Sequence record: NC_027330.1 | Direction: 5' to 3' (one strand) | Length of the DNA stretch: 45,403 nucleotides | Origin: Escherichia phage ECBP5 | Shown here: piece by piece, positions 6,154 through 43,510 of the stretch | Layout: each line of letters opens with the position of its first letter | Numbering within the stretch: the stretch's first letter is position 1 | Notes under the pieces: model-generated | What the model was told of the DNA's origin: nothing | Databases searched by the model: none | The model's input: the letters and a program-made list of their open reading frames with translations, nothing else | Made by a program: the position numbers and the translations under genes

Positions 6154-6175
6154 TTTAGGCACTACAATAGGGAGC
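6154..6175 (+). promoter_or_regulatory. Phage-RNAP promoter candidate (consensus copy)
   Basis: TTTAGGCACTACAATAGGGAGC; resembles the T7-class promoter layout (CACTA..ATAGG core, +1 G). Confidence 0.6.
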
Positions 6176-6274
6176 AAGCTAAGTAAGTTAAGTAAGCTAT
6201 AGTAAGCTAACTAAAGCTTAGTAAGCTCCCCTCTTTCCCTCTTTATAGAGGGATATAATATAGTAAGCCTTATC

Positions 6275-6313
6275 AGCCCTCTTGAGTGTAGTAGCTCAGG
6301 AGGGCTTTATTTT
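6275..6313 (+). terminator. Rho-independent terminator candidate
   Basis: 12-bp stem AGCCCTCTTGAG/CTCAGGAGGGCT (one mismatch) followed by TTATTTT. Confidence 0.6.
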
Positions 6314-6331
6314 GTCTAGTACACTAGACTG
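6313..6331. repeat. Palindrome AGTCTAGTACACTAGACT family copy
   Basis: GTCTAGTACACTAGACTGG. Confidence 0.7.
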
Positions 6332-6335
6332 GAGA

Positions 6336-6357
6336 CTTAGGCACTCCAATAGATAAC
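6336..6357 (+). promoter_or_regulatory. Phage-RNAP promoter candidate (variant)
   Basis: CTTAGGCACTCCAATAGATAAC; two substitutions relative to consensus. Confidence 0.45.
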
Positions 6358-6375
6358 TAATCAACGGAGCAGTTT

Positions 6376-6528
6376 ATGCAAACTAGTATTAAGCCAGAGA
6401 AGATGCAGTCTAAGAAGCTACGTAAGCTGAATGAGAAGGAGCAAGAGGAGCTTGCAATCCGTCAGCAGCATAAGGGCAAGCACCATAAGACCCAGCGTGG
6501 CAAGCGCCCTGAGTGGGAGGCTTATTAA
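6376..6528 (+). CDS. Small basic hypothetical protein (50 aa)
   Basis: GGAG RBS upstream; K/R-rich; stop 2 nt before the primase-helicase ATG; not in ORF track. Confidence 0.45.
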   Translation: MQTSIKPEKMQSKKLRKLNEKEQEELAIRQQHKGKHHKTQRGKRPEWEAY

Positions 6529-6530
6529 GT

Positions 6531-8543
6531 ATGTCTATTGTTATGAACCTACCTTGTCCTGCCTGTCAAAAGAATGGTGCAGATAGGCATGGTAAATATT
6601 TGATGGTATTCAGTGACGGAGGAAAACTCTGCTTACATACTCACAACCATGATAACCGTGAGCGCTACTATGAGCCACCAGATGGTAAAGACCCTGTGTT
6701 TGACCGTGAGATTGATGGCAAGGTTCAGTATTCTCCTGAGCAGTTCCGCAAGCTGGAATCAGATGGCAAGCTGAGTGATTCTTTTACTCGTCATCTGGCT
6801 ATGTCTGGTATGAGGATGAAAGACCGCTATGAGATTCTCACTGATGATGAGCGCACAGCTCTGGAGAATGAGTGGCGCATGGACATGGAGTGGTTTGATG
6901 GTCTTTCCTTTAAGTCACTAGCTGACCGTGGCATACACGGACTAATCGCCAAGCTTTATAATGTGCGAGTGGGTCATGATGAGTCTGGTAAAGTCGTCCG
7001 TCACTACTACCCTACTTATGACAGCCAGCTCAATCTGATTGGAGCTAAGTGTCGTACACTGCCTAAAGAATTTATGTTCGGGCATCTTGGTCGTCGCTTT
7101 GGTGATACTGCATTGTTCGGTATTCATACCCAGCAGGCTGTACTTGATAGTGGTACGTTCAAGAAAGGTAAGATGGGTAAGCTGCTGGTAGTTGGCGGTG
7201 AGTGCGATGCGATGGCAGCTCAGCAGATGCTTGTCAAGAGTCTCAATAAGCTTGAGCAGTTCAATGGGCTGAAGTCACTTGATGGCCTGCGTCTGGCTCA
7301 TGTGTGGTCGCCAACTAAAGGCGAGACAGCACTAGAGGAGATAGTAGCTAACCGTGAATACCTCAATCAGTTTGAGGATATTGTATGGGGCTTTGATAAT
7401 GACGATGTAGGCAACAAGCTTAACCTTGACTGCTCCCGCCTGTTCAGACAGAAGTCTAAGTTCTTTAACTACCCAGCTGGGTGCAAGGATGCCAATGACT
7501 GCCTGCTCAAAGGTAGAGAGAAAGAGTTTGTAGATGCATGGTGGCAGCCAGCAGAGGCTAGAGTTAAGGGCAAGCTGCGAGAGGCTGGTCACTACGCTAA
7601 GCGAGCTAAGCAAGCTGTAGAGATGGGCTTGTCATACTTCTGTGAAGCTCTCAACATGATTACATTTGGTATTCGCCTGCGTTACTTGTCTGTGTGGGGT
7701 GCGGGTACTGGTGTTGGTAAGACTGAGATTACTACTCAGCATATTACTAGCCTTATCAAGCAAGGTAAGCCAGTGGTAGCTATCTACCTTGAGAACAGTC
7801 CAGAAGAAGTCCTCAAGATGGTGGCAAGCCAGATGGCTAACAAGGACTTTATGAGTCCACCACTAGGTGAGGATGATGAGTACGATGCATCTAGGGATTA
7901 CACTCAAGAGGAATTAGACGCTACAATAGATGACTTAGTAGCAACTGGCTTGCTTATCATACCGGACCTTGAAGGTAGTAAGGATGTAAACGTAATAATG
8001 GAAGTCCTTGAAGATGCATTAGCATTAGGCTACCAGTATTATGTTATTGATAACCTGACAGCCTTTGAGCACTACGTAGATGGTAAGGTTCAAGTGGGTG
8101 TAGCTGCTATTGATGAGACTATGAAGCGCATCGGTACGTTTAAGGATGAGCATGACGTCAACATTATGCTTCTCACTCACTTAAGTAGACCAGAGAAAGG
8201 CCGTGACCCTCATGAGCTTGGTGGTGAAGTCTATATCACTGACTTACGTGGTGCAGGCTCTATCAGCTTTTGGGCTAATGGTGTATGGGGCATCGAGCGT
8301 AATACACAGGCTGAAGCTATCAGTGACAAGTGTACTACGCTGCTGCGTAACCTCAAGTCTCGTGGTGTAGGCCACAAGGTAGGCTCCACAGTTGTGCTCC
8401 GCAAGGACATTACAACTGGTGAGTTTGAGTACCTTGAAGGTGTTCATGAGCTGCCTCAGGTTGGCAGGAAGAAGAAGGAGAGCAAGCGTGATGCGCAAGC
8501 TCAACGGTTTATTGATGATGCAGATACTGACGGAGAGTTCTAA
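6531..8543 (+). CDS. Bifunctional DNA primase-helicase (T7 gp4-like)
   Basis: N-terminal Cys4 zinc ribbon CPACQ...CLHTHNH, TOPRIM-like acidic motifs, Walker A GAGTGVGKTE, acidic C-terminus ending in Phe (DTDGEF); start set at ATG 6531 (GGGAGG RBS) rather than GTG 6513. Confidence 0.92.
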   Translation: MSIVMNLPCPACQKNGADRHGKYLMVFSDGGKLCLHTHNHDNRERYYEPPDGKDPVFDREIDGKVQYSPEQFRKLESDGKLSDSFTRHLAMSGMRMKDRYEILTDDERTALENEWRMDMEWFDGLSFKSLADRGIHGLIAKLYNVRVGHDESGKVVRHYYPTYDSQLNLIGAKCRTLPKEFMFGHLGRRFGDTALFGIHTQQAVLDSGTFKKGKMGKLLVVGGECDAMAAQQMLVKSLNKLEQFNGLKSLDGLRLAHVWSPTKGETALEEIVANREYLNQFEDIVWGFDNDDVGNKLNLDCSRLFRQKSKFFNYPAGCKDANDCLLKGREKEFVDAWWQPAEARVKGKLREAGHYAKRAKQAVEMGLSYFCEALNMITFGIRLRYLSVWGAGTGVGKTEITTQHITSLIKQGKPVVAIYLENSPEEVLKMVASQMANKDFMSPPLGEDDEYDASRDYTQEELDATIDDLVATGLLIIPDLEGSKDVNVIMEVLEDALALGYQYYVIDNLTAFEHYVDGKVQVGVAAIDETMKRIGTFKDEHDVNIMLLTHLSRPEKGRDPHELGGEVYITDLRGAGSISFWANGVWGIERNTQAEAISDKCTTLLRNLKSRGVGHKVGSTVVLRKDITTGEFEYLEGVHELPQVGRKKKESKRDAQAQRFIDDADTDGEF

Positions 8544-8728
8544 TGATTGACACCCTTATTAAAATGTTCAAATTGGCGAGGGCTAACCCCGATGCCTTCT
8601 GTGATGGCGGTACAGTAGGTGAAAAGTGCTCTGGCATTAGTTGCCATGACTGCCCCTTCTCCTCAACCTCTAATCTTAATGCAACAATTGTTGAGCTTGA
8701 GAAAGCTCAGGAGAAACAAGATGTCTGA
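8543..8728 (+). CDS. Small Cys-rich hypothetical protein (61 aa)
   Basis: TAATG overlap with the helicase stop. Confidence 0.45.
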   Translation: MIDTLIKMFKLARANPDAFCDGGTVGEKCSGISCHDCPFSSTSNLNATIVELEKAQEKQDV

Positions 8729-8966
8729 AGTTAAAATCAGTGTACAAGTTTTCCCTAAACTTGCAGTAGAAGGGGAGGAGCATACTGTTACCCGTGTAGT
8801 TGCAACAGCTGACTGTGGTGATACAGGCTATTCAAGCGAGGAGTACCTTGTAGACCAAGCAGTAGAGAAGCTTGAAGGGTTTAATCGCGAGGATGTTATT
8901 GCAGCAACTAAGCGTGAAATACTGCGCGAGCTGACTGTTATCCTTGTAGCTAACGGAGTGCTATAA
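8721..8966 (+). CDS. Hypothetical protein (81 aa)
   Basis: GGAGAAAC RBS before ATG 8721; the ORF-track start at 8619 would overlap the upstream gene. Confidence 0.5.
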   Translation: MSEVKISVQVFPKLAVEGEEHTVTRVVATADCGDTGYSSEEYLVDQAVEKLEGFNREDVIAATKREILRELTVILVANGVL

Positions 8967-9366: not shown

Positions 9367-9385
9367 CGCTAACGTTGGCCTCAAG

Positions 9386-10826: not shown

Positions 10827-13412
10827 ATGAATAACTTTCCGTCAATGTTTGCCAATAAAGCTGACCGCCCCTCTGGTAAGGGGCGCTTTCTTGTTGGTGA
10901 CCTAGAGGGTGTAGGGCTTGTCAGGGCTATTCGTAAGCCGTCTGACATTCACGTCATCACCCTGCAAGATTACTTTAGCGGTGACTACTGGATTTTCTTC
11001 GACCCTATTGAGAATCGAATCAACCCTAGTGAGCTGCAAATGGAAGGTGAGCAGGATGGCTACATTGAGGATGGTGTTCGTATGCTCATGGAGTCAGAAG
11101 CTTTCTGCTTCCAGAACGGGGTAGGCTTTGACTTGCATGTGTTTGAGAAATGCTTCCCGTGGTTCAAGTATAACTACTTGGAGTCACGAGCAGCTAGACC
11201 ACATGCTGACATCTTCCCGTTTAAGTTTATGGATACCATGCTGGTTAGCCAGCTGACTTATCCAGACCGTCCATTGCCACCACAAGCTTACGCCATCGGA
11301 GCAGGTAATACAGGTCCGCATAGTATTGCAGCTCATGGTATCCGCATGGGTCGCTATAAGCCTGACCATGAGGACTGGTCTACCCTTACTGATGCAATGA
11401 TTCACCGTAACGTGGAAGACGTTGCTATCGGTACTGACATGCTTAAGTGGCTCATGGAGGGTGACTGGGCTGAGCAGAAAGCTCGTGGCCTTAACAAGAC
11501 TACTGGCTGCGGCATCGAGACTGCTTATCAGATGGAGCAGCAAGTAGCGCTCATGATTAGCCGTCAGGAGCAGCGTGGGTTCCGCTTTGATATGGCACAG
11601 GCTTACAAAGACTTCTGTACCATTGATAAGGAGATGGAAGATACAGCAGCTGCTGTTGACCCACTTATCCCACTCAGGCTGGTCACTAAGCCTTATAAGT
11701 TTGCTGACCTTAAATCAAGGTATGATGCACTTCTTAAATCTGGTCTGCTTGAGAATAGTAATCAAGATGATTTAGCTGCTTGGGGTTTATTGAGGCCATG
11801 TGATGTTAAAGACTTCTTCAATGGCATCCATCAGACCATGAAAGCTATGGGCGATGAAGCTCGCATGGGTGACAAGGCTACTATGTGGTCTTTGACAACC
11901 AAGAACGGTGACTACGGCAAGCGCCTGCAAGGTTACTTCCCTGAGATGCGGGGTAACATCAATGATACTCATGACCCTCTTGTAGCTGGTGCATTCACTC
12001 CAATTAGCTTTGAGCATATAGGATTGGGTAACCTTGACTACATCAAAGAGAAGGTGCTGTATCCGCTGGGCTGGCGTGGTGTTAACTTGTCTGACTCTGA
12101 GCAAGAGTGGTATGACGAGCATGGCACAACACGCTATCCGTGGGCTGGTAAGATTGATGATGACTCGCTTGAGCTGTGGAAGAAGAAGCAGGAAGTGCCA
12201 GAGTGGGCGCAGCAGGTTGTTAACTACTACATCTTACGCTCACGTCGCTCAGTTATCCTGAACCGTGGCGACCTTGACCACTTCCTTGAGAAGGGTCAGT
12301 GGCCTAAGCAGAAGAATGGGCGTCATGAATGTCGTGGCCTGCTGGCAGTAGCTTACTGCAAAGAGCATGACATGATGGCTATGGAATACTTTGCTAAGTT
12401 CCGTGAGTGGCCTACATCTGAGGATGAGGACTGGCGTGTACCAGCAGCGGCTTTCAGCATTGGTACTAACACGTTCCGTATGCGTCATCGCTTTGTGGTT
12501 AACATACCTGCTCGTGGGCTGTGGCCTCTGCGTCACCTGTTCATTGCATCCAAGGGTAAGCTTATCTTAGGCTGTGATGGGGCTGGACTTGAGCTGCGTA
12601 TGCTTAGTCACTTTATGAATGACCCTGAGTATCAGGACATCATTCTCACTGGTGACATTCATACACACAACCAGCTCAAAGCAGGCTTGCCTACTCGTGA
12701 TATGGCTAAGACATTCATCTATGCATTCCTGTATGGCTCAGGGATTGATGGCCTAGCTCGCTTGGCTGGCATTAGCTTTAGTGAGATGGAGCAGTGTATT
12801 GCTCGCTTCAAGGCAGAGCTACCTGCACTTGCTAAGCTCATTGAGCGTGTGGAAAATGCTGGTCGCAAGTTCGGATACCTGCAAGCTATTGATGGTAGAT
12901 GGGGTCGTATCCGTCGTAAGAATGGTAAGCCACTGCTGCACACTGCACTTAACGTATTGCTTCAGATGACAGGCTCTCTGGTCATGAAGTATGGTGAGTG
13001 CATCGCTGAGACTCAGATGATTGAGGAAGGAGTTGCATTAGATGATAAAGGCTATCCAGCTTTCGTGGCTAACGTACACGATGAAGTCCAGATGGAAGTC
13101 TCTGAAGATGAAGTTGATGTTATGGACTACACGTTGCCATATACACTTGATGGATTCGAGAATGAGAAGAAAGCTATCAAGGCAGTCTTTGATGTTGAAG
13201 AGAAGCGAGCGCACACAGATGATAGTGGGCGTAAGTGGTCAGCAGCTATCAAGGTTTCTGCTGCTGATGGTACTATCCATTGTCGCAGGTACTATCATCG
13301 AGCTGGTCACATCCTTATGGATGCTTTCGAGGCTGCTGGTGTTAAGTTCAACATGAGATGCCCACTTGCTGGTGAATATAAGATAGGTCGTAACTGGCAC
13401 GATACTCACTAG
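10827..13412 (+). CDS. DNA polymerase, family A, with 3'-5' exonuclease domain
   Basis: Exo I-like VGDLEG; motif A DGAGLELR; motif B RDMAKTFIYAFLYG; motif C VHDE; 861 aa. Confidence 0.93.
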   Translation: MNNFPSMFANKADRPSGKGRFLVGDLEGVGLVRAIRKPSDIHVITLQDYFSGDYWIFFDPIENRINPSELQMEGEQDGYIEDGVRMLMESEAFCFQNGVGFDLHVFEKCFPWFKYNYLESRAARPHADIFPFKFMDTMLVSQLTYPDRPLPPQAYAIGAGNTGPHSIAAHGIRMGRYKPDHEDWSTLTDAMIHRNVEDVAIGTDMLKWLMEGDWAEQKARGLNKTTGCGIETAYQMEQQVALMISRQEQRGFRFDMAQAYKDFCTIDKEMEDTAAAVDPLIPLRLVTKPYKFADLKSRYDALLKSGLLENSNQDDLAAWGLLRPCDVKDFFNGIHQTMKAMGDEARMGDKATMWSLTTKNGDYGKRLQGYFPEMRGNINDTHDPLVAGAFTPISFEHIGLGNLDYIKEKVLYPLGWRGVNLSDSEQEWYDEHGTTRYPWAGKIDDDSLELWKKKQEVPEWAQQVVNYYILRSRRSVILNRGDLDHFLEKGQWPKQKNGRHECRGLLAVAYCKEHDMMAMEYFAKFREWPTSEDEDWRVPAAAFSIGTNTFRMRHRFVVNIPARGLWPLRHLFIASKGKLILGCDGAGLELRMLSHFMNDPEYQDIILTGDIHTHNQLKAGLPTRDMAKTFIYAFLYGSGIDGLARLAGISFSEMEQCIARFKAELPALAKLIERVENAGRKFGYLQAIDGRWGRIRRKNGKPLLHTALNVLLQMTGSLVMKYGECIAETQMIEEGVALDDKGYPAFVANVHDEVQMEVSEDEVDVMDYTLPYTLDGFENEKKAIKAVFDVEEKRAHTDDSGRKWSAAIKVSAADGTIHCRRYYHRAGHILMDAFEAAGVKFNMRCPLAGEYKIGRNWHDTH

Positions 13413-13461: not shown

Positions 13462-13716
13462 ATGTGGAATATTATCTTTGAAGTATTAGCATTCTTCTTC
13501 TGTACTGTGTGCTTCTACCGTATTGCCAAGTGTTATGGTGATAAATTCAAATCTGCACTAGCTAACATGAAGCGTACTGAAAAACGTGAGCATCGTTATA
13601 ATTTTGCTGATTATCTAGAATTTCGTCAGTATCGTCTTGCTGCTATTTTATTTAAGGTAGCCACTTACGTATGCCTGTACTTTGCCTTGCTTAACTTATC
13701 AGCATTACTTAACTAA
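13462..13716 (+). CDS. Small hydrophobic (membrane?) protein (84 aa)
   Basis: Two hydrophobic segments; followed by hairpin CTCCCTC-TACT-GAGGGAG plus TTT. Confidence 0.5.
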   Translation: MWNIIFEVLAFFFCTVCFYRIAKCYGDKFKSALANMKRTEKREHRYNFADYLEFRQYRLAAILFKVATYVCLYFALLNLSALLN

Positions 13717-13802: not shown

Positions 13803-14567
13803 ATGTCTTTAGATAACTTTGACTTCGGCGCAGACCTAGCAGAAGCGTCTGGTGTCAAACGAGTAAACCCTGAAGTTGGCTTGCACTTTGCTCGTTTGCG
13901 TAGTGTGATTCACTTAGGCTCAATTGCTGCCATGTACCGTGGAAAGCCAAAGCCACCAGTTAACAAGGCTGCTTTCATCTTTGAACTTAAGGGCGACCTT
14001 GATGAGATTGATGACCTGCACCCTGACAACGGTGAGCCATTGTGCATCGGCATCGGGGTTAACCTTACCAAAGGTGACAATGCCAAGCTCACAGAAGTTA
14101 TGGCAGCTCTCATCTCTAAGAAGGAGATGGAGGAAGGTACTGTCAAAGGTATGGATGACCTGATTGGTCGTGTCTGCCAGCTTGACCTGAAGGGCAGTGA
14201 TGCCAAGGGTGATGACGGTAAGCCTAAGTACGTTGACATCAAATCACTCAGCCCTGTGGCTAAGGCATTCGCCGCACAGATTCCTGAGCTGTCAGTAGCT
14301 GGCGTAGGTCACTGCCGCCTGTCTCAGCTGTCTATGGCTGCGATGGATGAGCTGAACGTGTTCCTCGATGTCCAAGAGGGCATCATGAAATCTGAGGAGT
14401 GGAAAGCAGGAACGCACCCAGCAATCGCTCTGGTAGAGGAAATCCGCAAGGAGCGTCCGAACTATGCCAAGGCTGAGAAGAAGTCTGACAAAGGCGCTGA
14501 CGAGCCACAGGGCGAGCAGGAGCCGTCTAAGCCAGCTGAGCAGATGAACACCGATGAGGAGTTCTAG
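13803..14567 (+). CDS. Putative ssDNA-binding protein (T7 gp2.5-like by size and tail); acidic C-terminus ending in Phe
   Basis: AGGAGAAAC RBS before ATG 13803; C-terminus ...EQEPSKPAEQMNTDEEF; N-terminal DNFDFGA motif shared with the exonuclease; SSB call is an inference. Confidence 0.6.
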   Translation: MSLDNFDFGADLAEASGVKRVNPEVGLHFARLRSVIHLGSIAAMYRGKPKPPVNKAAFIFELKGDLDEIDDLHPDNGEPLCIGIGVNLTKGDNAKLTEVMAALISKKEMEEGTVKGMDDLIGRVCQLDLKGSDAKGDDGKPKYVDIKSLSPVAKAFAAQIPELSVAGVGHCRLSQLSMAAMDELNVFLDVQEGIMKSEEWKAGTHPAIALVEEIRKERPNYAKAEKKSDKGADEPQGEQEPSKPAEQMNTDEEF

Positions 14568-14609
14568 TCTAGTACACTAGACTGAAGCCGTACTAGTTAG
14601 CTAGTACGG
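14564..14609. repeat. Two adjacent palindromes (family copies)
   Basis: TCTAGTCTAGTACACTAGACTGA and CCGTACTAGTTAGCTAGTACGG. Confidence 0.7.
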
Positions 14610-14610
14610 T

Positions 14611-14633
14611 ATTAGGCACTACAATAGGAATAG
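14611..14633 (+). promoter_or_regulatory. Phage-RNAP promoter candidate (consensus copy)
   Basis: ATTAGGCACTACAATAGGAATAG. Confidence 0.6.
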
Positions 14634-14750
14634 AATGCTCAACTTATGCATCCCTGTATCTGGCGGTCGCTACAAAGGATACAGGTTGCCTATAGGCTGT
14701 AATGGTGTCCAAAGCCAACGGCTTGGGTGGTGCATAAGCATGAGCATTCT
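14634..14750 (+). other. Structured element between tandem promoters (nested inverted repeats); candidate small RNA or replication origin
   Basis: Outer inverted repeat ATGCTCAACTTATGCA / TGCATAAGCATGAGCAT enclosing hairpins CCTGTATC..GATACAGG and CCAAGCC..GGCTTGG; no ORF. Confidence 0.35.
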
Positions 14751-14755
14751 TAACC

Positions 14756-14779
14756 TATTAAGCACTACAATAGGAATAG
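14756..14779 (+). promoter_or_regulatory. Phage-RNAP promoter candidate
   Basis: CTATTAAGCACTACAATAGGAATAG. Confidence 0.55.
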
Positions 14780-16491: not shown

Positions 16492-16889
16492 AGAAAACTA
16501 CTAAAGCTGATTTAGTTTGGATTAAGAAAGAGCTGCTGGAGAAGCAGCGTTACCGTTGCCCTATTACTGGTAGAGACTTACGGACAATGAAGCCAGCTAA
16601 CTTATGTGTTGACCACTGTCACACATCTGGTGTTATTAGAGCTGTGCTGCCAAAGGGTATCAATGGACTTGAAGGAAAGATTAAAACACTGATGCAACGG
16701 TTTGGTGGCTTTGAGGCCACTGATGTAGTAGGACAGGCCAAAGCCTTATATGCACTAGCAGACTTCATCCTTTTACACAGAGTGCCACAGACACCTTATC
16801 TGCATCATACACACCTGTCACCAGCAGAGCAGAGAGCCAAGCGTAATGCTCAGGCTCGTAAGCGGTATGCTTTGAAGAAGAAGGAGTAA
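16482..16889 (+). CDS. Endonuclease VII-like Holliday-junction resolvase
   Basis: CPITG...CVDHCHTSG zinc/His-Me finger motif; GGTGGAG RBS before ATG 16482. Confidence 0.7.
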   Translation: MELKKTTKADLVWIKKELLEKQRYRCPITGRDLRTMKPANLCVDHCHTSGVIRAVLPKGINGLEGKIKTLMQRFGGFEATDVVGQAKALYALADFILLHRVPQTPYLHHTHLSPAEQRAKRNAQARKRYALKKKE

Positions 16890-25219: not shown

Positions 25220-25250
25220 TGCCCCGTCCTCTTGGATGGGGCTTATTTTT
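25220..25250 (+). terminator. Rho-independent terminator (T-phi-like, after capsid gene)
   Basis: GCCCCGTCC-TCTT-GGATGGGGC hairpin followed by TTATTTTTG. Confidence 0.7.
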
Positions 25251-25263
25251 GTTAGGAGGCTGA

Positions 25264-34000: not shown

Positions 34001-34929
34001 TGATGAAGGGTGCTGAGTATGGCGATGCAGTTATTGGACAGGTGTCTAGGGCTGATAAGGTACTGGACAACATCGGATGGCTGCAAAGCACTATGTCCTT
34101 CCTCCGACCTATGCAGGGTATGATTGATGAGCTATCTGCTCGTAGCATCATGACCAACATAGTTGACCTGTCTAAGAATGGGATGTTCACTGGTAAGGTT
34201 CGCAAGAGCTTCCTTGAGCTTGGTAAGATGTCTGAGGATTCACTTGATTCCAGTATGACTCACATTAAGTCTCAGATGGGTTCTGGTAAGGACATCTTTG
34301 AAGCTATCCGCACACTTGACCCTAAGCTGCGTGATGAGCTTGGTACAGCTATTCGTACCATCCACACATTCAACATTGGCCGCTCTTACTATGGGGAGCT
34401 TCCAGCATTTACTAACCAATCGCTTGGTAAGATTTTCATGAAGCTTCAGTCATTCGCACTGGTAGCTTATGAGAAATCTATTCAGCGTGGTTTCCGTAAT
34501 GACCAAGCTGGATTAGTTGCAGCAACTGCTTGGTCAGCTGGATTAGCCTACTTGTGGTCTGAGGTGGATGTCCGTGCTCAGTCACTCAAGCAACCTGAGG
34601 CTAAGCGTGATGAGTACGTTCGTAAGCGCCTTGAGGATGAGATGGCTTATACAGTTGCCGGACGTATGTCTCAGCTTGCTGTACTCAGCACACTTGCTCA
34701 GGTCATGAACGTAGCTAACCCATATCAAGACAGTGTGCTCAAGCCTTTCGGTGAGTACCGTGGTGTTGCAGCAGGTGGTGCTATTGGCAAGGTTGGTCAG
34801 GCAGCAGCAGCTGGCACACGGCTTGCAACAGACCAGTCAGTAGACCCTGATGCTGATATGTATAAAGTCTATGGAGCTGTACCACTATTGAACACTGCAA
34901 TAGGTATGGCAATCCTCAACACATTATAG
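31066..34929 (+). CDS. Internal virion protein (T7 gp16-like), apparently without N-terminal transglycosylase domain
   Basis: 1287 aa; position and size; no ES...GLxQ motif seen at the N-terminus. Confidence 0.7.
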   Translation: MAETSVPQEQSFGDLFGAAARNNWILQQKQQSEDLMTYGTPVEGYKPSYEDVSKITTDYKLTDEQSKIISGSMSPEELQYRAKVFKDNNDSKKTLDNAGWKGMAAEVLSYAADPVMLPTYALKTPMVVGQIATKLGFQFSKTAVTGAIERAVGAGIVGGATGLGQEAVLSMYDPNRDVNDVVLAGISGVVGGAAFSSLADGGAAIFERLTAKRQLGRAMDEAVEAFDWDNSISLVNSADHELTGASMGRIENTQYGKYFDMLQGDIPDELARKRVLTEGDAINKMIDDLTPTAEARMSRGQRMEAEAQIKATSHDMEIIAQRLADVEATAPAGSGKALSKARQDRAAELSSLRSQLDDLRAQVVTKQTELAPHATGEYAEAVGDISRLKQGIIPDRLKERYLDLITPEDPAPAFNEAVAGLPPVKDEPVVLPEQAAQEAAKPVEQPDTSIGAAEVKDSIIFPDTEGKEISDTYANVLGGLQKIGEKIPVTKVAGSTALYTRVMAGTKDNTLRGIASLVFNDPHGVKGAPQSAIAFSDTMRTSIMPKAFFIENAAKEQYLKQLGVNPLFQAGKYNEELIKFDRNIMLRMTELTDTVIGDADDAITRAAKARAQAYAESLKLMKRYGVRGFENVEERASYTPVTFGKNDITSALDQFGEDAVREVLARGYMTGKIPLSDKSARLVADNTLERFYRKSGKVAAVKPTESISGKIAEVVNELREGGVADSEIRTVINMLQDKAHDESISARAMQSLHPNLAAETTDGLRFVDLVDSSTASVDKYVRDAAAQAAFAKYGMRSRRQVEDTITEAFKRHRQQLTELTDNYNRAKERLSKLDRSKALPSVVSELEKTIKDYERLGDINKYRKFLDSYEEDFFNGVKVTFGEPVEQANSIAYAASSTGKLVNLMMLGFSGLAQVADLGVTIARSGVGATLRNLPTTLYHGVRSLLPSARYFETNNQLNNMAEIFGTVSHQDYLFGHKMMKGAEYGDAVIGQVSRADKVLDNIGWLQSTMSFLRPMQGMIDELSARSIMTNIVDLSKNGMFTGKVRKSFLELGKMSEDSLDSSMTHIKSQMGSGKDIFEAIRTLDPKLRDELGTAIRTIHTFNIGRSYYGELPAFTNQSLGKIFMKLQSFALVAYEKSIQRGFRNDQAGLVAATAWSAGLAYLWSEVDVRAQSLKQPEAKRDEYVRKRLEDEMAYTVAGRMSQLAVLSTLAQVMNVANPYQDSVLKPFGEYRGVAAGGAIGKVGQAAAAGTRLATDQSVDPDADMYKVYGAVPLLNTAIGMAILNTL

Positions 34930-34936: not shown

Positions 34937-35857
34937 ATGAACTTCTCTTTTACTCGTGATACTGGTGACGGAGTTAAGACAGTATTCACAATGTCCTTTG
35001 CAGGACAGGATGAGGGCTATTTGAATGCCTCTAATATTCACGTACTTGTTAATGGTGTAGAGGTTCCATTTACCATTAACCCAACTGACCCTAATAAGGT
35101 ATACCTATCAACTGCCCCAGCTAATGGGGCTGATGTCCTTATCAGGCGTATCATGCCTAAGAACGTGCCTTACTCTGACTTCAAGAACGGAAACCCATTT
35201 AGTCAGGATACGCTGAACTATACCCAGCTACAGCAGTTGTATGTGACACAAGAGCTACTTGATGGTTTCCTTCCAGATGGCTTCTACTTTAAGCAAGATG
35301 TCAACATGGGTGGTTATAACATCAAGAACTTGGGTGATGCTGTAGACCCTGATGATGCAGTTAAGAAAGAGGTAACTGATGATTTGGGTAATAGGGTAAG
35401 CTCTCTAGAAGATAATCTTACTGATACCTCGTTAACTACCGTTCCTTGGCGGTTTGTTGCAACTGGTGGAGAGATTACAATATCACCTCCTTACTCTTTC
35501 ACAAATGCCCTTCTCTACATCAATGGCGTTACACAGACCATAGGTGCAGATTATGCATACACAGTATCTGGTAATCAGCTACATCTACCTGAGCCACTAA
35601 GAGCTGGAGATGAGGTGTTTGTTATCATTGGAACCAACATACAGCCGCCTAGTGATTTAATCTCCTATGATGGGGCTATTATTGCATATGCGAGTATGGT
35701 GACTGGTGTACCTGTTCAGCAGGTCTATATACCTGTTGTTGGCCTCACCGTAAGTAACGCACTGGTTTTTATTGATAATGGCGTTATTCATACCCTTAAT
35801 GCACCTGCTAGCGGGGTTATCACTTCCATAGCTTGGCCTGATATTGTTATATCATAG
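34937..35857 (+). CDS. Tail fibre / adaptor protein with T7 gp17 N-terminal-like domain
   Basis: 306 aa; N-terminal segment pattern resembles the T7 gp17 tail-attachment domain. Confidence 0.7.
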   Translation: MNFSFTRDTGDGVKTVFTMSFAGQDEGYLNASNIHVLVNGVEVPFTINPTDPNKVYLSTAPANGADVLIRRIMPKNVPYSDFKNGNPFSQDTLNYTQLQQLYVTQELLDGFLPDGFYFKQDVNMGGYNIKNLGDAVDPDDAVKKEVTDDLGNRVSSLEDNLTDTSLTTVPWRFVATGGEITISPPYSFTNALLYINGVTQTIGADYAYTVSGNQLHLPEPLRAGDEVFVIIGTNIQPPSDLISYDGAIIAYASMVTGVPVQQVYIPVVGLTVSNALVFIDNGVIHTLNAPASGVITSIAWPDIVIS

Positions 35858-36099: not shown

Positions 36100-36403
36100 T
36101 AAGAATTCAGCCACAGAGGATGATGTAGGCCTTATCCATAAGCTTGTTACTAAGGTCATCACTAAGAAGCTTGAGAAGTGGTTAGAGCTTATTGAGCAGG
36201 GTGGTGACGTAGATTTAGTTGTGGATATGAAACAGCTCAAGTCTGCCATCGACTGGTGTGACAAGAATGGCATTGTATGTGCTGACCCAGCTGAGCAGAG
36301 TGACAATGAGCTTGGTGATAAACTGTCTGAGATTCGTAAAGCTCAACACGCTCGTGGTGTTGTCGTTCCATTCAAAGAGGATGAGGAGGGTTATGGTACA
36401 TGA
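36077..36403 (+). CDS. Terminase small subunit (T7 gp18-like)
   Basis: GTG start 6 nt after AAGGAGG; about 108 aa; directly upstream of and overlapping the large terminase gene. Confidence 0.6.
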   Translation: MASVSKSNKNSATEDDVGLIHKLVTKVITKKLEKWLELIEQGGDVDLVVDMKQLKSAIDWCDKNGIVCADPAEQSDNELGDKLSEIRKAQHARGVVVPFKEDEEGYGT

Positions 36404-38250
36404 GGCGTGTTAACAGGAACGACAAGAAAGCACAGCTAGAAATGTGGGAGGAGCTTGAAGCGATACAGAAAGCTTTTCCATTTACTGTGCAAGGCTTGTG
36501 GCTGTTTGCCTCACTTGTGCTTGAGAAGACTATTGTAGGCTCTCCTCACCTTAATCGCACACAGAAAGACATTCTTAGCTTCCTGCTTAACGGCGGGAAG
36601 TATATAGGCATACAGGCAAGCCGTGGTATGACCAAGACAGTTATGGCAGCTATCCTATGCTGCTTCTGTCTTATCCACATGCCACACTATCGTATCATTG
36701 TATTCTCACAGAACGGTAAGCGAGCTAAAGAGATTGCAGGCTGGGTAGTTAAAATCTTCTATGCTATAGACATCCTTGAGGTATTGCAGCCAGATACCTA
36801 TGCTGGCGACCGTTCATCCATTGAAGCTTTTGATATTCATTGGTGCTTCCGTGGTGCTGATAAGTCACCATCTGTCACCTGCTATTCTATCGAGTCAGGT
36901 GCGCAGGGTGCTCGTGCTGACCTTATCCTTGCTGATGATATTGAGTCGCTACAAAACTCCCGTACAGCTCAGAGCCGTGAGTGGCTGCTTGAGCAGTCAT
37001 TAGAGTTTGAGTCGATTAACCAGTATGGTCGTATCATCTATCTAGGTACACCTCAGGGTGTTGAGTCTATCTACAACACGCTTCCAGCTCGTGGCTACGT
37101 TATGCGTATCTGGCCTGGCCGTTATCCAACAGCTGAGCAGCTTGAGTTCTATGGCAATGCTCTGGCTCCATTATTCCGTAAGGATATTGAAGCTGACCCA
37201 AGCTTGCAAAGCGGTGGTGGGCTTGATGGTACTATGGGCAAGCCAACAACACCTGCTATGTATGATGAGGAGTTGTTGCAAGAGAAGGAGATGAGGCAAG
37301 GTCTTGCTAAGTTCATGTTGCAGTTCATGGTTCACACAGGTATGTCTGACCGTGACCGCTTCAAGCTTAAGCTAGAGAATCTGGTACTAATGAACTTCAA
37401 TGCCATGCAAGGTGCGGTTATGCCTGTGTGGAACAGTGACCAACGTAGCATGTGGCAAGCTGCCCCTCGCTTTGGTACACGTCCACAAGACAGGTTCTAC
37501 TTTGCTATGCAGCAGCCATATATCATGCGTGACTTTGACCTAACTGTTATGTTCATTGACCCAGCTGGTGGTGGCTCCCGCTCACAGGATGAGATGGGTT
37601 ATGCGATAACCAAGCTACTCGGTACTTATGTCTACATCTATGATGTTGATGGTGTCAAGGGTGGGTATGAACAATCAGAGCTGATGAAGCTTGTACAAGC
37701 TGCTAAGGATGCTAAGGTCAACGTTTGCTATGTTGAAAAGAACTATGGTAACGGTGCTCACTTTGCAATGCTTAAGCCACTGTTTGAGAAGTTTTACCCA
37801 GAGTGTAGGCTTGAGGAAATTAACTCAACAGGTCAGAAGGAACTACGTATCATCGATACACTAGAACCACTGCTGGGTCAGCATCGCTTGGTAGTATCAC
37901 AGACAGCTGTTATGAAGGACTACAACAGCATTCAGAAGTACCCAGCAGAGGTCAAGATGACTTACAGCTGCTTCTACCAACTTGCTCACATAACGAGCGA
38001 CCGTGGGGCGCTGAGGCACGATGACCGCTTAGACGCACTGGCTGGGGCTGTGGCGCAGATTGTCAACTACATCGACTATGACCAAGAGAAGGCCGAGAAA
38101 GACCGACAGGCGGAGGCTGACAAGCATTTCTTTGAGGTTATGGCTAACCCTAATGGTTTCGTCCACACGATGATGCACGGTGGTGATTTTATGAGCTATG
38201 TTGAGCAGCAAAACACCGGAGCCAACGCACTCAAGAAATACTTTAATTAA
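36400..38250 (+). CDS. Terminase large subunit (T7 gp19-like)
   Basis: 616 aa; position after holin/small subunit; ATPase-like LILADDIESL segment. Confidence 0.8.
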   Translation: MRRVNRNDKKAQLEMWEELEAIQKAFPFTVQGLWLFASLVLEKTIVGSPHLNRTQKDILSFLLNGGKYIGIQASRGMTKTVMAAILCCFCLIHMPHYRIIVFSQNGKRAKEIAGWVVKIFYAIDILEVLQPDTYAGDRSSIEAFDIHWCFRGADKSPSVTCYSIESGAQGARADLILADDIESLQNSRTAQSREWLLEQSLEFESINQYGRIIYLGTPQGVESIYNTLPARGYVMRIWPGRYPTAEQLEFYGNALAPLFRKDIEADPSLQSGGGLDGTMGKPTTPAMYDEELLQEKEMRQGLAKFMLQFMVHTGMSDRDRFKLKLENLVLMNFNAMQGAVMPVWNSDQRSMWQAAPRFGTRPQDRFYFAMQQPYIMRDFDLTVMFIDPAGGGSRSQDEMGYAITKLLGTYVYIYDVDGVKGGYEQSELMKLVQAAKDAKVNVCYVEKNYGNGAHFAMLKPLFEKFYPECRLEEINSTGQKELRIIDTLEPLLGQHRLVVSQTAVMKDYNSIQKYPAEVKMTYSCFYQLAHITSDRGALRHDDRLDALAGAVAQIVNYIDYDQEKAEKDRQAEADKHFFEVMANPNGFVHTMMHGGDFMSYVEQQNTGANALKKYFN

Positions 38251-38283
38251 TGGCAATAATCCCTTAGTTTTCATAACTTTGGG

Positions 38284-38305
38284 ATTAGGCACTACAATAG
38301 GAGAA
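38284..38305 (+). promoter_or_regulatory. Phage-RNAP promoter candidate (consensus copy)
   Basis: ATTAGGCACTACAATAGGAGAA followed by AGTAAG-repeat leader. Confidence 0.6.
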
Positions 38306-38422: not shown

Positions 38423-39034
38423 ATGGCTACATATACCACCAGCATACTTAAGCTTATAAAAGGCTCTTTGTCTTCTGGTAAACTGCCTAAGGCTAACTCA
38501 CAAGGTGACTTAGTTGACTCTAAGTTAACTGATGATGGCACAAAGCTTGCTTACAATGGTAATGAAGTAACAGACTCTCGCACACAGCGTAAAAAGACTG
38601 AGGTCTATTACACTGGTGTTTCTGTTACTCTCACTGCGGGTACTCAGTACAATTTAGTAAACCTGTTAAAAGCTCTTACAGCAAACTCAGGTACACTTGC
38701 ACCATTCTTTGACACTACATCCAACAAACTCAAGGTTATTAATGATAATGCTAGTTGCATGTTCAAACTTAACCTAGTAGGCAACTGGGCGAACGCATCA
38801 TCAGATAGGAGTCTTCAGGTTGACTTTGTAGGAACAAACGGCAACAGGTTAGTTGCTAACAGGTCTTCAGCTACCACAGCTGATTCATTAACACTATCTA
38901 CTTTCTTATCTGTTGATAAGAATGGTAACTTAGCAACAAATGGCAGCACTGTTAACTTAACAGCTGTTGGTATCAACTTCACAATTACATCTGCGCTTCT
39001 TATTGCTGAGCAGGTAACTAAAGAATCTTTCTAA
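38423..39034 (+). CDS. Hypothetical late protein, Ser/Thr/Asn-rich (203 aa)
   Basis: AAGGAGAG RBS; own promoter upstream. Confidence 0.6.
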   Translation: MATYTTSILKLIKGSLSSGKLPKANSQGDLVDSKLTDDGTKLAYNGNEVTDSRTQRKKTEVYYTGVSVTLTAGTQYNLVNLLKALTANSGTLAPFFDTTSNKLKVINDNASCMFKLNLVGNWANASSDRSLQVDFVGTNGNRLVANRSSATTADSLTLSTFLSVDKNGNLATNGSTVNLTAVGINFTITSALLIAEQVTKESF

Positions 39035-39046: not shown

Positions 39047-39325
39047 ATGCCACGTAATATTACTGGTGATTCACCTAAGTCTGTACAAACTCAGTCCGTA
39101 TCTATGCTGCCAGTGGCTATTGTCACTCAGGCAAACTTGGCTAGCGCAGCTCACCCTATCAACGATACTACCAAGTCTGGCAAGCAAGTTGGTGGTCTGG
39201 TCTACGTTAAGCTGACTACTGGTGGTAATGTCTGCATCGCAATTGCTCAGGGTTCTGGCGCTACTGATAAGTGGCTGGTACTTGGCATGGATGCTGCTGG
39301 CTTCATTGAAGTAACACCAGCTTAA
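39047..39325 (+). CDS. Hypothetical protein (92 aa)
   Basis: AAGGAGA RBS. Confidence 0.55.
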   Translation: MPRNITGDSPKSVQTQSVSMLPVAIVTQANLASAAHPINDTTKSGKQVGGLVYVKLTTGGNVCIAIAQGSGATDKWLVLGMDAAGFIEVTPA

Positions 39326-39335
39326 TAAGGTTGGT

Positions 39336-39356
39336 CAGTCTAGTACGCTAGACTGG
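39336..39356. repeat. Palindrome family copy, terminator-like
   Basis: CAGTCTAGTACGCTAGACTGG followed by CCTCTTTCT. Confidence 0.6.
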
Positions 39357-39368
39357 CCTCTTTCTACT

Positions 39369-40353: not shown

Positions 40354-40361
40354 GAGTAATC

Positions 40362-40511: not shown

Positions 40512-40720
40512 TGATTAAAGCTCTCCTTGAAGTTCTGGCAATCCTGCTCCGAGCTATTGAAAGGAAGCAAGTAAAAGAGGAGCAGCAAGATGCGCAAGCT
40601 GAAGCTGATCGTATTAGCACCAATCCTACTGAGTGGTTTAATGATCACTTCAGGGTGCGTACAGAGTCCAGCAAGACAGATGCCAGTAAAGCCAGCCCTG
40701 ACAACAGTCACACAAGTTGA
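40511..40720 (+). CDS. Putative i-spanin (Rz-like)
   Basis: N-terminal hydrophobic segment followed by charged helix; overlaps o-spanin candidate in another frame. Confidence 0.5.
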   Translation: MIKALLEVLAILLRAIERKQVKEEQQDAQAEADRISTNPTEWFNDHFRVRTESSKTDASKASPDNSHTS

Positions 40721-40799
40721 TGGTCAGATGTGCATGGATTTACAAGATGCAACTAAGTTGGGTTTGTACATACTAGGCCTTGAGCGCGGCTATCAGTAG
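40590..40799 (+). CDS. Putative o-spanin lipoprotein (Rz1-like)
   Basis: Signal peptide with lipobox-like LMITSGC, Pro-rich mature part; starts inside the i-spanin ORF in the +1 frame. Confidence 0.55.
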   Translation: MRKLKLIVLAPILLSGLMITSGCVQSPARQMPVKPALTTVTQVDGQMCMDLQDATKLGLYILGLERGYQ

Positions 40800-40855
40800 C
40801 CGCCTTATTACTCATAGCTATTCACAGTGAGTGGCTAGCAGTAATAGGAGATAAC

Positions 40856-42484
40856 ATGGCTAAACTTACAAGAGTAACGGACGCATTTGTGTACGTTAAG
40901 TCTAAATTAGCTGGAGCAATCCAGCGACTGTTAGAAGACAAGATGACTGACACTCTATCCATTAAGGATTTTGGTGCAGTCGGAGATGGTGTGCATGATG
41001 ACACAGATGCAATCATTGCAGCCTTCGCAGCTGCTAAGAACAAGTTTGGGGTCATTGCACCCTCAGGCCGTTATCGTGTAACCAGAGAGATTCCAGTCGA
41101 TTATGCACTGGTACTTATCGGGGAAGGTGGGAATGGCTTTAAGGGTACAAACTCAAGCCACAATCCATCGCCTCACTTTGGCACTACCTTTGTAAGTGAC
41201 ATGGCTAGTGGATACGTGTTCAATATCTCACCTGCTGCTTTCCAGTTTGGTCTTACCTTGCGTGACTTCTCTATCGAGCGTAACGAGTCATTAGGTATCA
41301 ACAATGCACGAGGTATGAGACTACATAATGTAGGGTGGACTGGTATCGTAGACAACGTGTGTATTGATGGCTTCTGGGAACATGGCTTGGTTATTGGTTA
41401 TATCCAAGATACACACTTCCGAGGCTGTACGGTATTACGTTGTGGTAATGAAGATGTGCCTAGTATTGAGATTGTTAATGACTCAAACTACGTATACTTC
41501 TTAAACTGCCATATCGAGTATTCTCCGTTCCTGTTCAAGAATACTGGCAATGCTTGGGAAGTTCACTTCACAAATAACCACTTTGAAGTTGCACAGTACG
41601 GCTCTAGCTCTGGTCTGCCTACCTTGAAGTATAAGCAAGCTCCGCTACAGCTTGGTGGTGGCAACATGGTTACTTTCAATACTTGTACAATTGTACCAGT
41701 ATCTGATGAGTATCTTCAGACTGCCCTTGGCATACCGTTTGACTCTTTACCATATTTCATTACTGGCTCGGGTTCATTCGTCAAGTTCATCAACTGCTCT
41801 GGTATTGCGCCAGAAGGTTCTGTCAGCTACATGTACCTAACAGGTACTGGTAATAAGGTACTTGGTGGCACATGGAAAGACATGACACCTAGGCGCCCTA
41901 GTATTGTCCTTGAAGATGGTGACATTGCTAATAACACATTAGCTATCCGTGTAGCTGCTGATGAGACAAAGCTGTACGGTGTCTTAGTCAATACTCGTGG
42001 CAAGATTACTGATAACTTGTTAACTGCATCAGGTACAGCGTCTACTACACGCAGAACTACTGGCATCCTTGTTGGATGTAGCCCTAGTGCGCCATTAGGA
42101 GCTGTTCAAGTTAGTGGTAACACTTATGACCTTGGTAATAGACCTAACCGCTATGTCTACCATCGTATTCAGATCAGTGGTCATGATGGAGGCTGCTCTT
42201 ACTTTGAGGGTATTAATGCCGCATTGTTTGACTTGGACTATGAGCTTTATAACCCTGCTGCAAACTTTGCTATGTGGAATACAACCTCATGGCAAGTGAC
42301 CAGTCAGGTCAATATGAATCCAGGACGTGTAGTAATGTTCCACGCAGGTGCAATAGCTGGATTTATTAATTACAGTGCATATGTAAAGAATGCTACGTTT
42401 AATAACCTTGCAGTAGAAGCTGGTGCATCTATTATGTACAAAGGCATCTCTGACGGTGAAGCAAGGATGTTCCAAGTTAAGTAA
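40856..42484 (+). CDS. Tailspike with pectate-lyase-like beta-helix domain (putative polysaccharide depolymerase)
   Basis: IKDFGAVGDGVHDDTDAIIAAF is a pectate-lyase-type beta-helix N-cap signature; 542 aa. Confidence 0.85.
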   Translation: MAKLTRVTDAFVYVKSKLAGAIQRLLEDKMTDTLSIKDFGAVGDGVHDDTDAIIAAFAAAKNKFGVIAPSGRYRVTREIPVDYALVLIGEGGNGFKGTNSSHNPSPHFGTTFVSDMASGYVFNISPAAFQFGLTLRDFSIERNESLGINNARGMRLHNVGWTGIVDNVCIDGFWEHGLVIGYIQDTHFRGCTVLRCGNEDVPSIEIVNDSNYVYFLNCHIEYSPFLFKNTGNAWEVHFTNNHFEVAQYGSSSGLPTLKYKQAPLQLGGGNMVTFNTCTIVPVSDEYLQTALGIPFDSLPYFITGSGSFVKFINCSGIAPEGSVSYMYLTGTGNKVLGGTWKDMTPRRPSIVLEDGDIANNTLAIRVAADETKLYGVLVNTRGKITDNLLTASGTASTTRRTTGILVGCSPSAPLGAVQVSGNTYDLGNRPNRYVYHRIQISGHDGGCSYFEGINAALFDLDYELYNPAANFAMWNTTSWQVTSQVNMNPGRVVMFHAGAIAGFINYSAYVKNATFNNLAVEAGASIMYKGISDGEARMFQVK

Positions 42485-42567
42485 TAAGTATTAATACTTA
42501 TTGAATCGTAACCAATTGGCAGCTTGCTAGGTAGTTATAGTAAGCTGCTGTTAACTGGAGTAAAGTT

Positions 42568-42696
42568 ATGTTATCTAATCAAGAGTTATTAGAAAAGTTT
42601 GATGAACTTATGTCACATCTCAATAGTGAAGACAACAGTATGGCTGAGGAGTTCAGAATTAATCTAGAGGAAGTATTAGAGTATCTTGTAAGCTAG
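42568..42696 (+). CDS. Small acidic hypothetical protein (42 aa)
   Basis: GGAG RBS 8 nt upstream; helical acidic peptide; weak support. Confidence 0.3.
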   Translation: MLSNQELLEKFDELMSHLNSEDNSMAEEFRINLEEVLEYLVS

Positions 42697-42873
42697 CTAG
42701 GTAGCCATTAGTGGTTACTGTAAGCTGGCCTTGAAACTTAAAATAGGGTGGACAGTTACAGCAGTTCCCGCCGCCGCCAGCTTCAGCTTTCCCCCATCGG
42801 GGTGGCTGCTGGCAACCTCTTAGGCCGCAGGCAGTTAGAGGGGGGGTGGGTAGGCTGGCTAGGTAGCTGGCAG

Positions 42874-43033
42874 TAGACCGACTGGTCTAGCGTAAGTCAT
42901 TGATGTTGTATCAGCTAACGAGTACATGAGAGCGCTGTACGTGAATACTTGCTGGCTCAAGCTGGCTGTGGCTCACAGAATTCTCCAGAGTGCGCTATAC
43001 ATATCAATGACTTACGTTAGACCGACTGGTCTA
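42874..43033. repeat. Two direct copies of 16-bp near-palindrome TAGACCGACTGGTCTA flanking an inverted repeat CGTAAGTCATTGAT / ATCAATGACTTACG
   Basis: Copies at 42874-42889 and 43018-43033; inverted repeat arms at 42891-42904 and 43003-43016. Confidence 0.75.
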
Positions 43034-43486
43034 CTAGTGGCTGGTCAGGCAGCTGCTGTGAGCTGGCTAGGTGGCTTACGGATAGCCGATTGTGAGCAGC
43101 CAGTGAGCCGCTGTGGGCTTCAGCTCCGCTGTGGCTACGGTTGGCTTGCCAGTGGCTTGAGGCGCTCTGTGAGCTGCTGAGGGCTGTGGCTTGCTGTACT
43201 CGTGTGCTAGTACGCTGCTGTGTGTATCTGTCTTTAGTCTGATGGGCTACTGTCTTTAGTTTGCTGCACCACTGGTAGCTTATTGGGTAGCTCATAGGTA
43301 GCTTACAAGGCTCACAGCTTGCTGGTACTACTGAGGGCTTACTAGGTAGCTTGCTATCACTGACTAGGTAGCTGCTGTTAGTTCACTAGGTAGCTAGCTA
43401 TGGCTTACTAGGTAGTTACTAGGTGGATTGATGTAAGCTTACTCAAGCTCTCTCTTAGTGCATCATTCGATGCACAATATAAGAAG

Positions 43487-43510
43487 AATAAGACACTACA
43501 ATAAGAATAG
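43487..43510 (+). promoter_or_regulatory. Phage-RNAP promoter-like motif (variant) near presumed left end
   Basis: AATAAGACACTACAATAAGAATAG. Confidence 0.4.

Follow-up and report, generated by a model that had tools for sequence, protein, structure and literature searches.

A promoter family with its own consensus, predicted for the single-subunit RNA polymerase of Escherichia phage ECBP5

The DNA analysed here is the sequence record NC_027330.1 of Escherichia phage ECBP5, a stretch of 45,403 nt that we call the window. It carries a gene for a single-subunit RNA polymerase (RNAP) and a short motif that recurs about ten times on the same strand, mostly between genes. The encoded RNAP is an exact match to YP_009146377.1 (AID17660.1) and is homologous over its full length to the T7 RNAP structures (1.8e-115), and the tail protein is an exact match to AID17711.1 of ECBP5. 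RNAPs that are 99.0-99.4% identical are present in PP99, MR4, JSF38, Roth32, RCIP0053/0089 and Z1; the hosts given for this group of phages are Escherichia, Pectobacterium, Klebsiella, 'Pseudomonas' and 'Vibrio'. Clustering at 90% identity places the RNAP in a group of 185 members from public assemblies.

The number of motif copies was compared with that in shuffled sequences. The exact 17-mer TAGGCACTACAATAGGA occurs three times (14613, 24011 and 38286), where 0.00 copies are expected from the shuffles. Nine sites, all on the + strand, are within 3 mismatches of it (6156, 6338, 13416, 14613, 14759, 18011, 24011, 38286 and 43490); shuffling is expected to give 0.18 such sites and never gave as many as nine. 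A position weight matrix (PWM) trained on these nine sites and applied with a threshold of 8 bits adds a tenth site at 7915 (TTAGACGCTACAATAGAT, 4 mismatches, within the open reading frame (ORF) of the primase/helicase), and it also gives a weak match at 34889, which would be an eleventh site, and a very weak match at 22258. All 13 matches at or above the threshold are on the + strand, which is that of the genes. Exact counting of k-mers, which is independent of any motif model, gives ACTACAATA as the top 9-mer of the window both by frequency and by over-representation, with 10 copies, again all on the + strand. A preliminary description of this DNA had proposed a family of repeats with a shared core, with a PWM scan as a way to check it, and the family is confirmed by both kinds of search. 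The sites named there are real, but their positions were placed 2 nt too far upstream because a (T)T prefix had been taken in. Four of them had been called perfect, which is correct for the 16-mer TAGGCACTACAATAGG (i.e. TAGGCACTACAATAGGA without its last A, four exact copies) but not for the 17-mer, since the site at 6156 ends in GGG and not in GGA.

The consensus of the ten sites from -17 to +6 is AATTAGGCACTACAATAGGAATA, in other words AATTAGGCACTACAATA up to -1, followed by GGAATA from +1. The presumed start, +1, is the G that follows ATA, as read from an alignment with SP6 and T7. Positions -15, -13, -8, -7, -5, -4, -3, -2 and -1 are invariant across the ten sites, and the information content is concentrated between -15 and +2 as one contiguous element. 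The sites are listed in Table 1 together with terminator-like hairpins and the genes that could be assigned.

Table 1. Predicted promoters (P1 to P11), terminator-like hairpins and assigned genes in the window; sequence columns are numbered from the presumed start
Feature	Coordinates	Strand	-17 to -1	+1 to +6	Context or basis
P1	6153..6175	+	CTTTAGGCACTACAATA	GGGAGC	first promoter past the early region; followed by an ORF-less leader of ~145 nt that ends at the terminator-like hairpin 6275-6306
P2	6335..6357	+	ACTTAGGCACTCCAATA	GATAAC	24 nt 5' of a 50-aa ORF, then primase/helicase
P3	7912..7934	+	AATTAGACGCTACAATA	GATGAC	inside the primase/helicase gene
P4	13413..13435	+	TATTAAGCACTACAATA	GGTATA	abuts the DNA polymerase stop codon
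P5	14610..14632	+	TATTAGGCACTACAATA	GGAATA	core is the 17-mer consensus; 134-nt structured ORF-less interval downstream
P6	14756..14778	+	TATTAAGCACTACAATA	GGAATA	103 nt 5' of an acidic 119-aa ORF
P7	18008..18030	+	AGTTAGAAACTACAATA	GGACTA	overlaps the stop codon of gene 16889-18013; ahead of kinase and ligase genes
P8	24008..24030	+	AATTAGGCACTACAATA	GGAGAA	consensus promoter, 67 nt 5' of the major capsid gene
P9 (doubtful)	34886..34908	+	TATTGAACACTGCAATA	GGTATG	PWM 18.4 bits; within the end of the internal-virion-protein gene, 34 nt 5' of the tail-fibre/adaptor gene
P10	38283..38305	+	GATTAGGCACTACAATA	GGAGAA	consensus; after large terminase, before tail-needle, lysis and tailspike genes
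P11	43487..43509	+	AATAAGACACTACAATA	AGAATA	A at +1; non-coding, upstream of early genes
Terminator-like hairpin and T-run	5954..5987	+			closes the early block with the RNAP gene; narrower limits 5954-5977
Strong terminator-like hairpin (13 pairs) and T-run	6275..6316	+			between P1 and P2
Terminator-like hairpin and T-run	25221..25252	+			directly 3' of the major capsid gene (position of T7 Tphi); narrower limits 25221-25242
Further terminator-like hairpin and T-run					after ORF 39047-39325
Single-subunit RNAP (877 aa)	1961..4594	+			Pfam RNA_pol 2.5e-92, RPOL_N 3.4e-23
Primase/helicase	6531-8543				Pfam
DNA polymerase	10827-13412				Pfam
Portal	21510-23102				Pfam
Major capsid	24092-25204				PP99 synteny
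Tail-fibre adaptor	34937-35857				Pfam
Large terminase	36400-38250				Pfam
Tail needle knob	38423-39034				Pfam
Tailspike	40856-42484				Pfam

Non-coding DNA, i.e. that outside the ORF set, makes up 9.8% of the whole but contains nine of the 11 predicted starts (binomial P = 3.8e-8), and seven sites have a start codon 24-123 nt downstream. The sites point in the direction of the genes, are mostly intergenic and are found 3' of the RNAP gene, with the exception of the left-region site P11. The early block that contains the RNAP gene (~7.9 kb, from 43,510 to 6,150 across the wrap of the record) has no motif site. P8 and P10 agree at every position between -14 and +6, both with GGAGAA starts, whereas the sites of the replication region are variants. 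The division into variant sites at replication genes and exact-consensus sites at virion genes is T7-like, the classes being assigned here by sequence alone. Other T7-like features are the tandem promoters just past the RNAP gene (P1 and P2), the site inside the primase/helicase gene (phi4c in T7), the left non-coding site (phiOL) and the terminator after the capsid gene (Tphi). Unlike these features of the map, the sequences are distant from T7: only 13 of 23 promoter positions are identical, and the RNAPs share 35% identity.

The preliminary description had located the sites before the primase, after the DNA polymerase, before the acidic gene, before the capsid gene and before late genes, and this part of its map stands, the site before the late genes being the one that follows the large terminase. 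The exception is its last site, given as near the terminus: the window ends are an apparent 208-bp overlap of a permuted record. Positions 1-208 and 45196-45403 carry the same 208 bp, and this repeat starts within an ORF whose ATG is at ~45193; this looks like a circular-assembly overlap rather than a physical terminal repeat, and the unique length would therefore be 45,195 bp. The ends of the PP99 record map to ~42,920 and ~43,040 of the window, so the window is permuted relative to that record. The site at 43490 (P11) corresponds to position 461 of the PP99 record, where it is non-coding and 5' of the first annotated gene. By analogy of position, P11 thus appears to be a left-region site that resembles T7 phiOL, not a right-terminus site. 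In the Pantoea phage Nufs112, the termini of which have been determined, a site of the phage's own type is found at 653, just inside the 410-bp terminal repeat, and matches P11.

The DNA of the window is 91-94% identical to that of PP99, MR4, JSF38 and the Klebsiella phages Roth32, RCIP0053/0089 and Z1; PP99 (a Pectobacterium phage) and MR4 are classified in Gajwadongvirus, Autographiviridae. The same motif is present at syntenic places in PP99, MR4, JSF38, Roth32 and the Edwardsiella phage DT115P1 (~80% DNA identity), and the scan of PP99 gave 9 strong and 2 weak syntenic positions. P1 is found in MR4, JSF38, Roth32 and the Edwardsiella phage, and no counterpart above threshold was seen in the PP99 scan. 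P2 is identical in five relatives and is also kept in the Edwardsiella phage. In total, six related phages have retained sites in syntenic places, also where the DNA around them is unrelated. The interval between P5 and P6 consists of unrelated DNA in each of six genomes (in Roth32 it contains an annotated tRNA-Ser), yet the 20-nt motifs are retained; likewise, the P6 motif is kept in all relatives with unrelated DNA upstream of it. The retention of these two motifs amid unrelated flanks argues for selection on the motif itself, and we regard it as the strongest sequence evidence of this kind. P3 is coding, but a site of the phage's own consensus is present at the same position of the primase/helicase gene both in the Klebsiella phage 6939 (at 16676) and in Nufs112 (at 11507), which speaks for P3 as a genuine internal promoter comparable to phi4c of T7. 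P9, on the other hand, is considered doubtful because it is coding and because its counterpart in the Edwardsiella phage is CAATGGG, i.e. the ATAG core is broken. We also note that the RNAP and the promoters form the most conserved module among the relatives, the genomes of which otherwise reach only 89-94% DNA identity, and that the tailspikes differ.

When the consensus is compared with those of characterised phage promoters, 13 of the 23 positions are identical to SP6, 13 to T7, 14 to T3 and 16 to K11. Positions -15 to -13, -6, -5 and -3 to +1 are common to all five, while the consensus is unlike all four of the others at -10 to -7 and at -4, where it has A for T. Among the ten sites, -10, -8 and -7 are invariant or nearly so. 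No match to the SP6, T7, T3 or K11 consensus was found in the window within 5 mismatches, which for SP6 holds on either strand. The SP6 promoters (ATTTAGGTGACACTATAGAAG) are alike in architecture, in length, in TTAGG at -15 to -11, in AC at -6/-5 and in ATA followed by G at -3 to +1, and SP6 also has a similar genome map and number of sites (11 consensus-type sites found). Nevertheless, the ECBP5 motif differs from the SP6 class at -16, at -10 to -7 (CACT for TGAC), at -4 (A for T) and at four of the positions +2 to +6, with GGA starts in place of GAA. The preliminary description was hence right in substance that the specificity region differs from T7 and SP6, but the distinct block is -10 to -7 plus -4 and not -12 to -8, because SP6 has the same TTAGG from -15 to -11.

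Consensus promoters of neighbouring clades were obtained by k-mer discovery and set beside the RNAP identity to the window: Klebsiella phage 6939 (68%, aATAAAGTTACACAATAGA), Nufs112 (67%, ATTAACCCTCACAATAGA), Aeromonas phage Tola (63%, ATTAAGGTTGCACAATAGA), phiA318 (50%, AATTAAGTTGCCCTATAGA), uligo (50%, TTTAAGTTGCATTATAGA) and SP6 (46%, ATTTAGGTGACACTATAGAA). The first three share with ECBP5 the sequence ACAATAG (-6 to +1, with A at -4), an ATTA upstream part and the map positions, and they differ from it between -12 and -7, where 6939 has AGTTAC, Nufs112 ACCCTC and Tola GGTTGC, as against GGCACT in ECBP5.

In T7 RNAP the promoter specificity region is read by the specificity loop, and R746, N748, R756 and Q758 are its hydrogen-bonding residues (PMC11880802). 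The loop of the ECBP5 enzyme (TTRQVNTQLLGGTKFVVSTK) was aligned in three ways (MAFFT, L-INS-i and HMMER against the T7 RNAP of the PDB). The residues equivalent to those of T7 are Q746, N748, K756 and V758, and the first three of these (Gln, Asn and Lys) come out at their positions in all three alignments. Compared with SP6, the loop differs at most positions; it is identical in PP99, which has the same consensus, and different in every other clade. The diverged loops of 6939, Nufs112, Tola, phiA318, uligo, SP6 and T7 are each paired with a different -12 to -7 block, and in Nufs112 the T3-like ACCCTC occurs together with Asp at the position equivalent to D749 of T3. At the level of the clades, this comparison shows predicted promoters and loops changing together.

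Whether a single residue could account for this change was judged from the base at -7, which does not differ among T7, T3, K11 and SP6. R746 of T7 RNAP contacts the -7 base pair, and the equivalent residue is R in the RNAPs of 6939, Nufs112 and Tola and Q in that of ECBP5. The first ten RNAP/promoter pairs all combined either Gln746 and a T at -7 or Arg746 and a C at -7. The rule was then tested on 80 RNAP loci from IMG/VR, in which the 746-equivalent residue is R in 62 and Q in 10, with others in the rest. It is rejected as a general rule: the Vibrio phages VEN and Vc1 have Gln with C at -7, L023 has Arg with T, L024 has Arg with G, L028 has Val with G and L052 has Glu with G. This failure agrees with a published remark that the SP6/K1E-like enzymes depart from the T7 rules. 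The pairing of Gln746 with T at -7 is kept as a within-clade hypothesis only. Going further, a switch of specificity in the lineage of ECBP5, PP99 and the Edwardsiella phage, at -7 (T for C) and at -4 (A for T) and partly via Gln for the R746-equivalent, is conceivable but rather doubtful. If it were true, the lineage would offer a naturally orthogonal polymerase/promoter pair that could be transplanted for synthetic biology, and a recognition logic not covered by the code of three residues (748/756/758) that was worked out for T7-like enzymes.

Other explanations of the motif have to be weighed against promoter function with a specificity of its own. The sites could be real promoters that lack a distinct specificity, so that RNAPs of the SP6 or K11 type would read them equally and the difference in consensus would be drift. 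TTAGG at -15 to -11 is indeed that of SP6, and 16 of 23 positions are those of K11. We nevertheless consider drift improbable, as the block from -10 to -7 is unlike that of all four classical promoters and is (nearly) invariant at -10, -8 and -7, corresponds to the region that the specificity loop reads in T7 (PMC11880802), is accompanied by a loop that is unlike the SP6 loop at most positions, and is found in a window that has no SP6- or K11-type site within 5 mismatches.

It is less probable still, i.e. quite unlikely, that the motifs are mainly recombination boundaries, elements of a replication origin or RNA-processing signals, with promoter activity being secondary or absent. The unrelated inserts that each relative carries between P5 and P6 are bounded by conserved motifs, which would suit such a role, as would the lack of an ORF directly downstream of P1 and P5 and the conserved hairpin modules directly 5' of P2 and P5 and ~80-120 nt 5' of P1. 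Moreover, P1 and P2 follow the RNAP gene, and in T7 this is the place of the primary origin, made up of phi1.1A/B and an A/T-rich region. Promoter activity does not conflict with such roles, however, and in T7 is needed for them; seven sites precede gene starts by 24-123 nt, and the motif is directly homologous in sequence to characterised promoters of single-subunit RNAPs. The least probable suggestion, and a very unlikely one, is that the sites are host sigma-70 promoters in which the embedded TACAAT acts as the -10 hexamer. TACAAT is one mismatch from TATAAT, and a scan for -35 and -10 hexamers spaced 16-18 bp gives TTCATA-17-TACAAT at 38270-38298 (P10) and ATCACA-17-TACAAT at 22242-22270. 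A lenient -35 partner was found in only one of the ten main sites, though (P10, 9/12), and the whole count of sigma-70-like matches is no higher than shuffling would give. The conservation is a single block from -15 to +2 with variable DNA at the would-be -35, this block aligns with the SP6, T7 and K11 promoters, and the motif varies by clade with the phage RNAP and not with the host. A sigma-70 identity of the sites is therefore rejected.

We consider it very likely, judging from the sequence comparisons, that the motif family represents the promoters of the phage's own T7/SP6-type single-subunit RNAP. The window has the cognate RNAP gene and an element of ~20-23 bp that is repeated ~10 times and is homologous to characterised promoters, with which it shares the A/T-rich part from -17 to -13, AC at -6/-5, ATA and G at +1, the exception being A for T at -4. 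The proposal of the preliminary description, a promoter family with its own consensus, is thus supported by the cognate RNAP, by homology, by synteny and by the clade-wise co-change. The sequences themselves show the statistics of the motif, its strand, placement, synteny and homology and its clade-wise co-change with the RNAP loop; promoter function, the position of +1, the classes and the pairing of residues with bases are inferred from them.

In such a programme, host RNAP would transcribe the early block, including the gene of the phage RNAP. The newly made phage RNAP would then bind the ~23-bp element and start at the G after ATA. By analogy with the T7 structures, the A/T-rich part from -17 to -13 would be read by the N-terminal AT-rich loop and -12 to -7 by the specificity loop (residues ~743-760), and AATA from -4 to -1 would be melted. 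The variant sites P2-P7 may serve the genes of DNA metabolism, like class II promoters of T7, and P8 and P10, with exact consensus and GGAGAA starts, may serve the virion and lysis genes, like those of class III.

The non-coding DNA around the promoters has several further features. ARAGORN found no tRNA near the promoters, and Rfam gave no RNA family near them at the gathering score and nothing significant at E up to 1 around P1 and P5-P6. The stretch 14627-14760 between P5 and P6 has 134 nt and no ORF and is predicted to fold into a three-way junction (-57.7 kcal/mol, z = -5.7 versus shuffles); it gave no tRNA, no Rfam match and no blastn match in 50,697 phage records. The interval resembles a site, flanked by promoters, at which small RNA cassettes are exchanged. 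In the leader that follows P1 (6170-6316) there are repeats of the type AAGTAAG(C/T)T at 9-nt spacing, and then the 13-bp terminator hairpin before P2. Similar GTAAGCT arrays are found 3' of P1 in Roth32 and the Edwardsiella phage, and AGTAAG repeats 3' of P10. The tandem position of P1 and P2 recalls, by analogy, the primary replication origin of T7.

A pair of short hairpins, GTCTAGTAYACTAGAC and GTACTAGTTRGCTAGTAC, recurs in the window (6034-6079, 6314-6333, 14567-14609, 39333-39358 and 43699), i.e. at the places 5' of P1, P2 and P5 mentioned above and in two further regions between genes. Pseudomonas phage uligo and the Vibrio phages VEN and Vc1 have analogous hairpins, GTCTCACA..TGTGAGAC or GTTTCACAG..GTGAAAC, at similar positions. 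The pair may represent RNase III-type processing sites or polymerase pause or termination signals. The acidic protein encoded downstream of P6 (14876-15235, 119 aa, isoelectric point 4.5) has no Pfam match and a strongly acidic C-terminal tail that ends in Phe (…EEADSEEVPEAPEAAAEDETF). This tail recalls, again by analogy, the acidic, Phe-terminated tail of T7 gp2.5, a single-stranded DNA-binding protein the tail of which contacts DNA polymerase and helicase. Two tandem arrays were seen in the IMG/VR loci. One, in L071 (IMGVR_UViG_3300045988_117133, 12820-12970), has at least 10 copies of the 15-nt unit AACTCAGGCAACTG[CG] just 3' of the RNAP gene of a distant relative. The other, in the SP6-like phage L030 (IMGVR_UViG_641201069_000001, 13562-13670), has ~7 copies of the 16-nt unit AGGTTATAAGGCTGTG in the region of the replication genes; it has a TATA-like core and is the most frequent repeat of the locus, and a PHIRE-type search could mistake it for a promoter.

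The promoter set as such is already known, and the published entries are predictions for the same phage or genus. Zhao et al. 2017 are said to have included ECBP5 in a PHIRE promoter set of 46 genomes. In the PP99 paper, 10 phage-specific promoters were predicted with PHIRE/phiSITE and given with positions and a consensus logo (PMC6989608), and a 2024 review table of alternative phage RNAPs lists ECBP5 with TAGGCACTACAATA, 877 aa and YP_009146377.1 (PMC11617373). This 14-mer is the core of the motif found here. Several points speak against the assignment of the sites to the phage RNAP. A genome-mining pipeline published in 2025 gave no promoters in ECBP5, and the earlier PHIRE predictions for this phage scored low on a T7-like position-specific scoring matrix, low scorers being judged likely false positives (PMC11880802). 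A literature search for experimental tests of the ECBP5 promoters (5' ends, in vitro transcription) found none. In addition, the TACAAT in the motif comes close to the consensus -10 hexamer of sigma-70, P9 falls within a gene and lacks conservation in Edwardsiella phages, and P11 would start with A; some of the 11 sites may be inactive. The sequence comparisons argue that the ECBP5 sites are genuine and merely outside a T7-trained model.

What is added here to the published entries are explicit coordinates, comparative evidence and the loop comparison; nothing substantive differs, and as the ECBP5 RNAP is already listed for in vitro transcription, the finding opens no new question. The comparative evidence for genuine sites stands against the view of the 2025 study that they are likely false positives (PMC11880802). 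For phages of the ECBP5 type, a map that gives the coordinates of 10-11 promoters and 3-4 terminators is of modest practical value, and the ECBP5 RNAP together with TAGGCACTACAATAGG may be regarded as a candidate orthogonal transcription pair.

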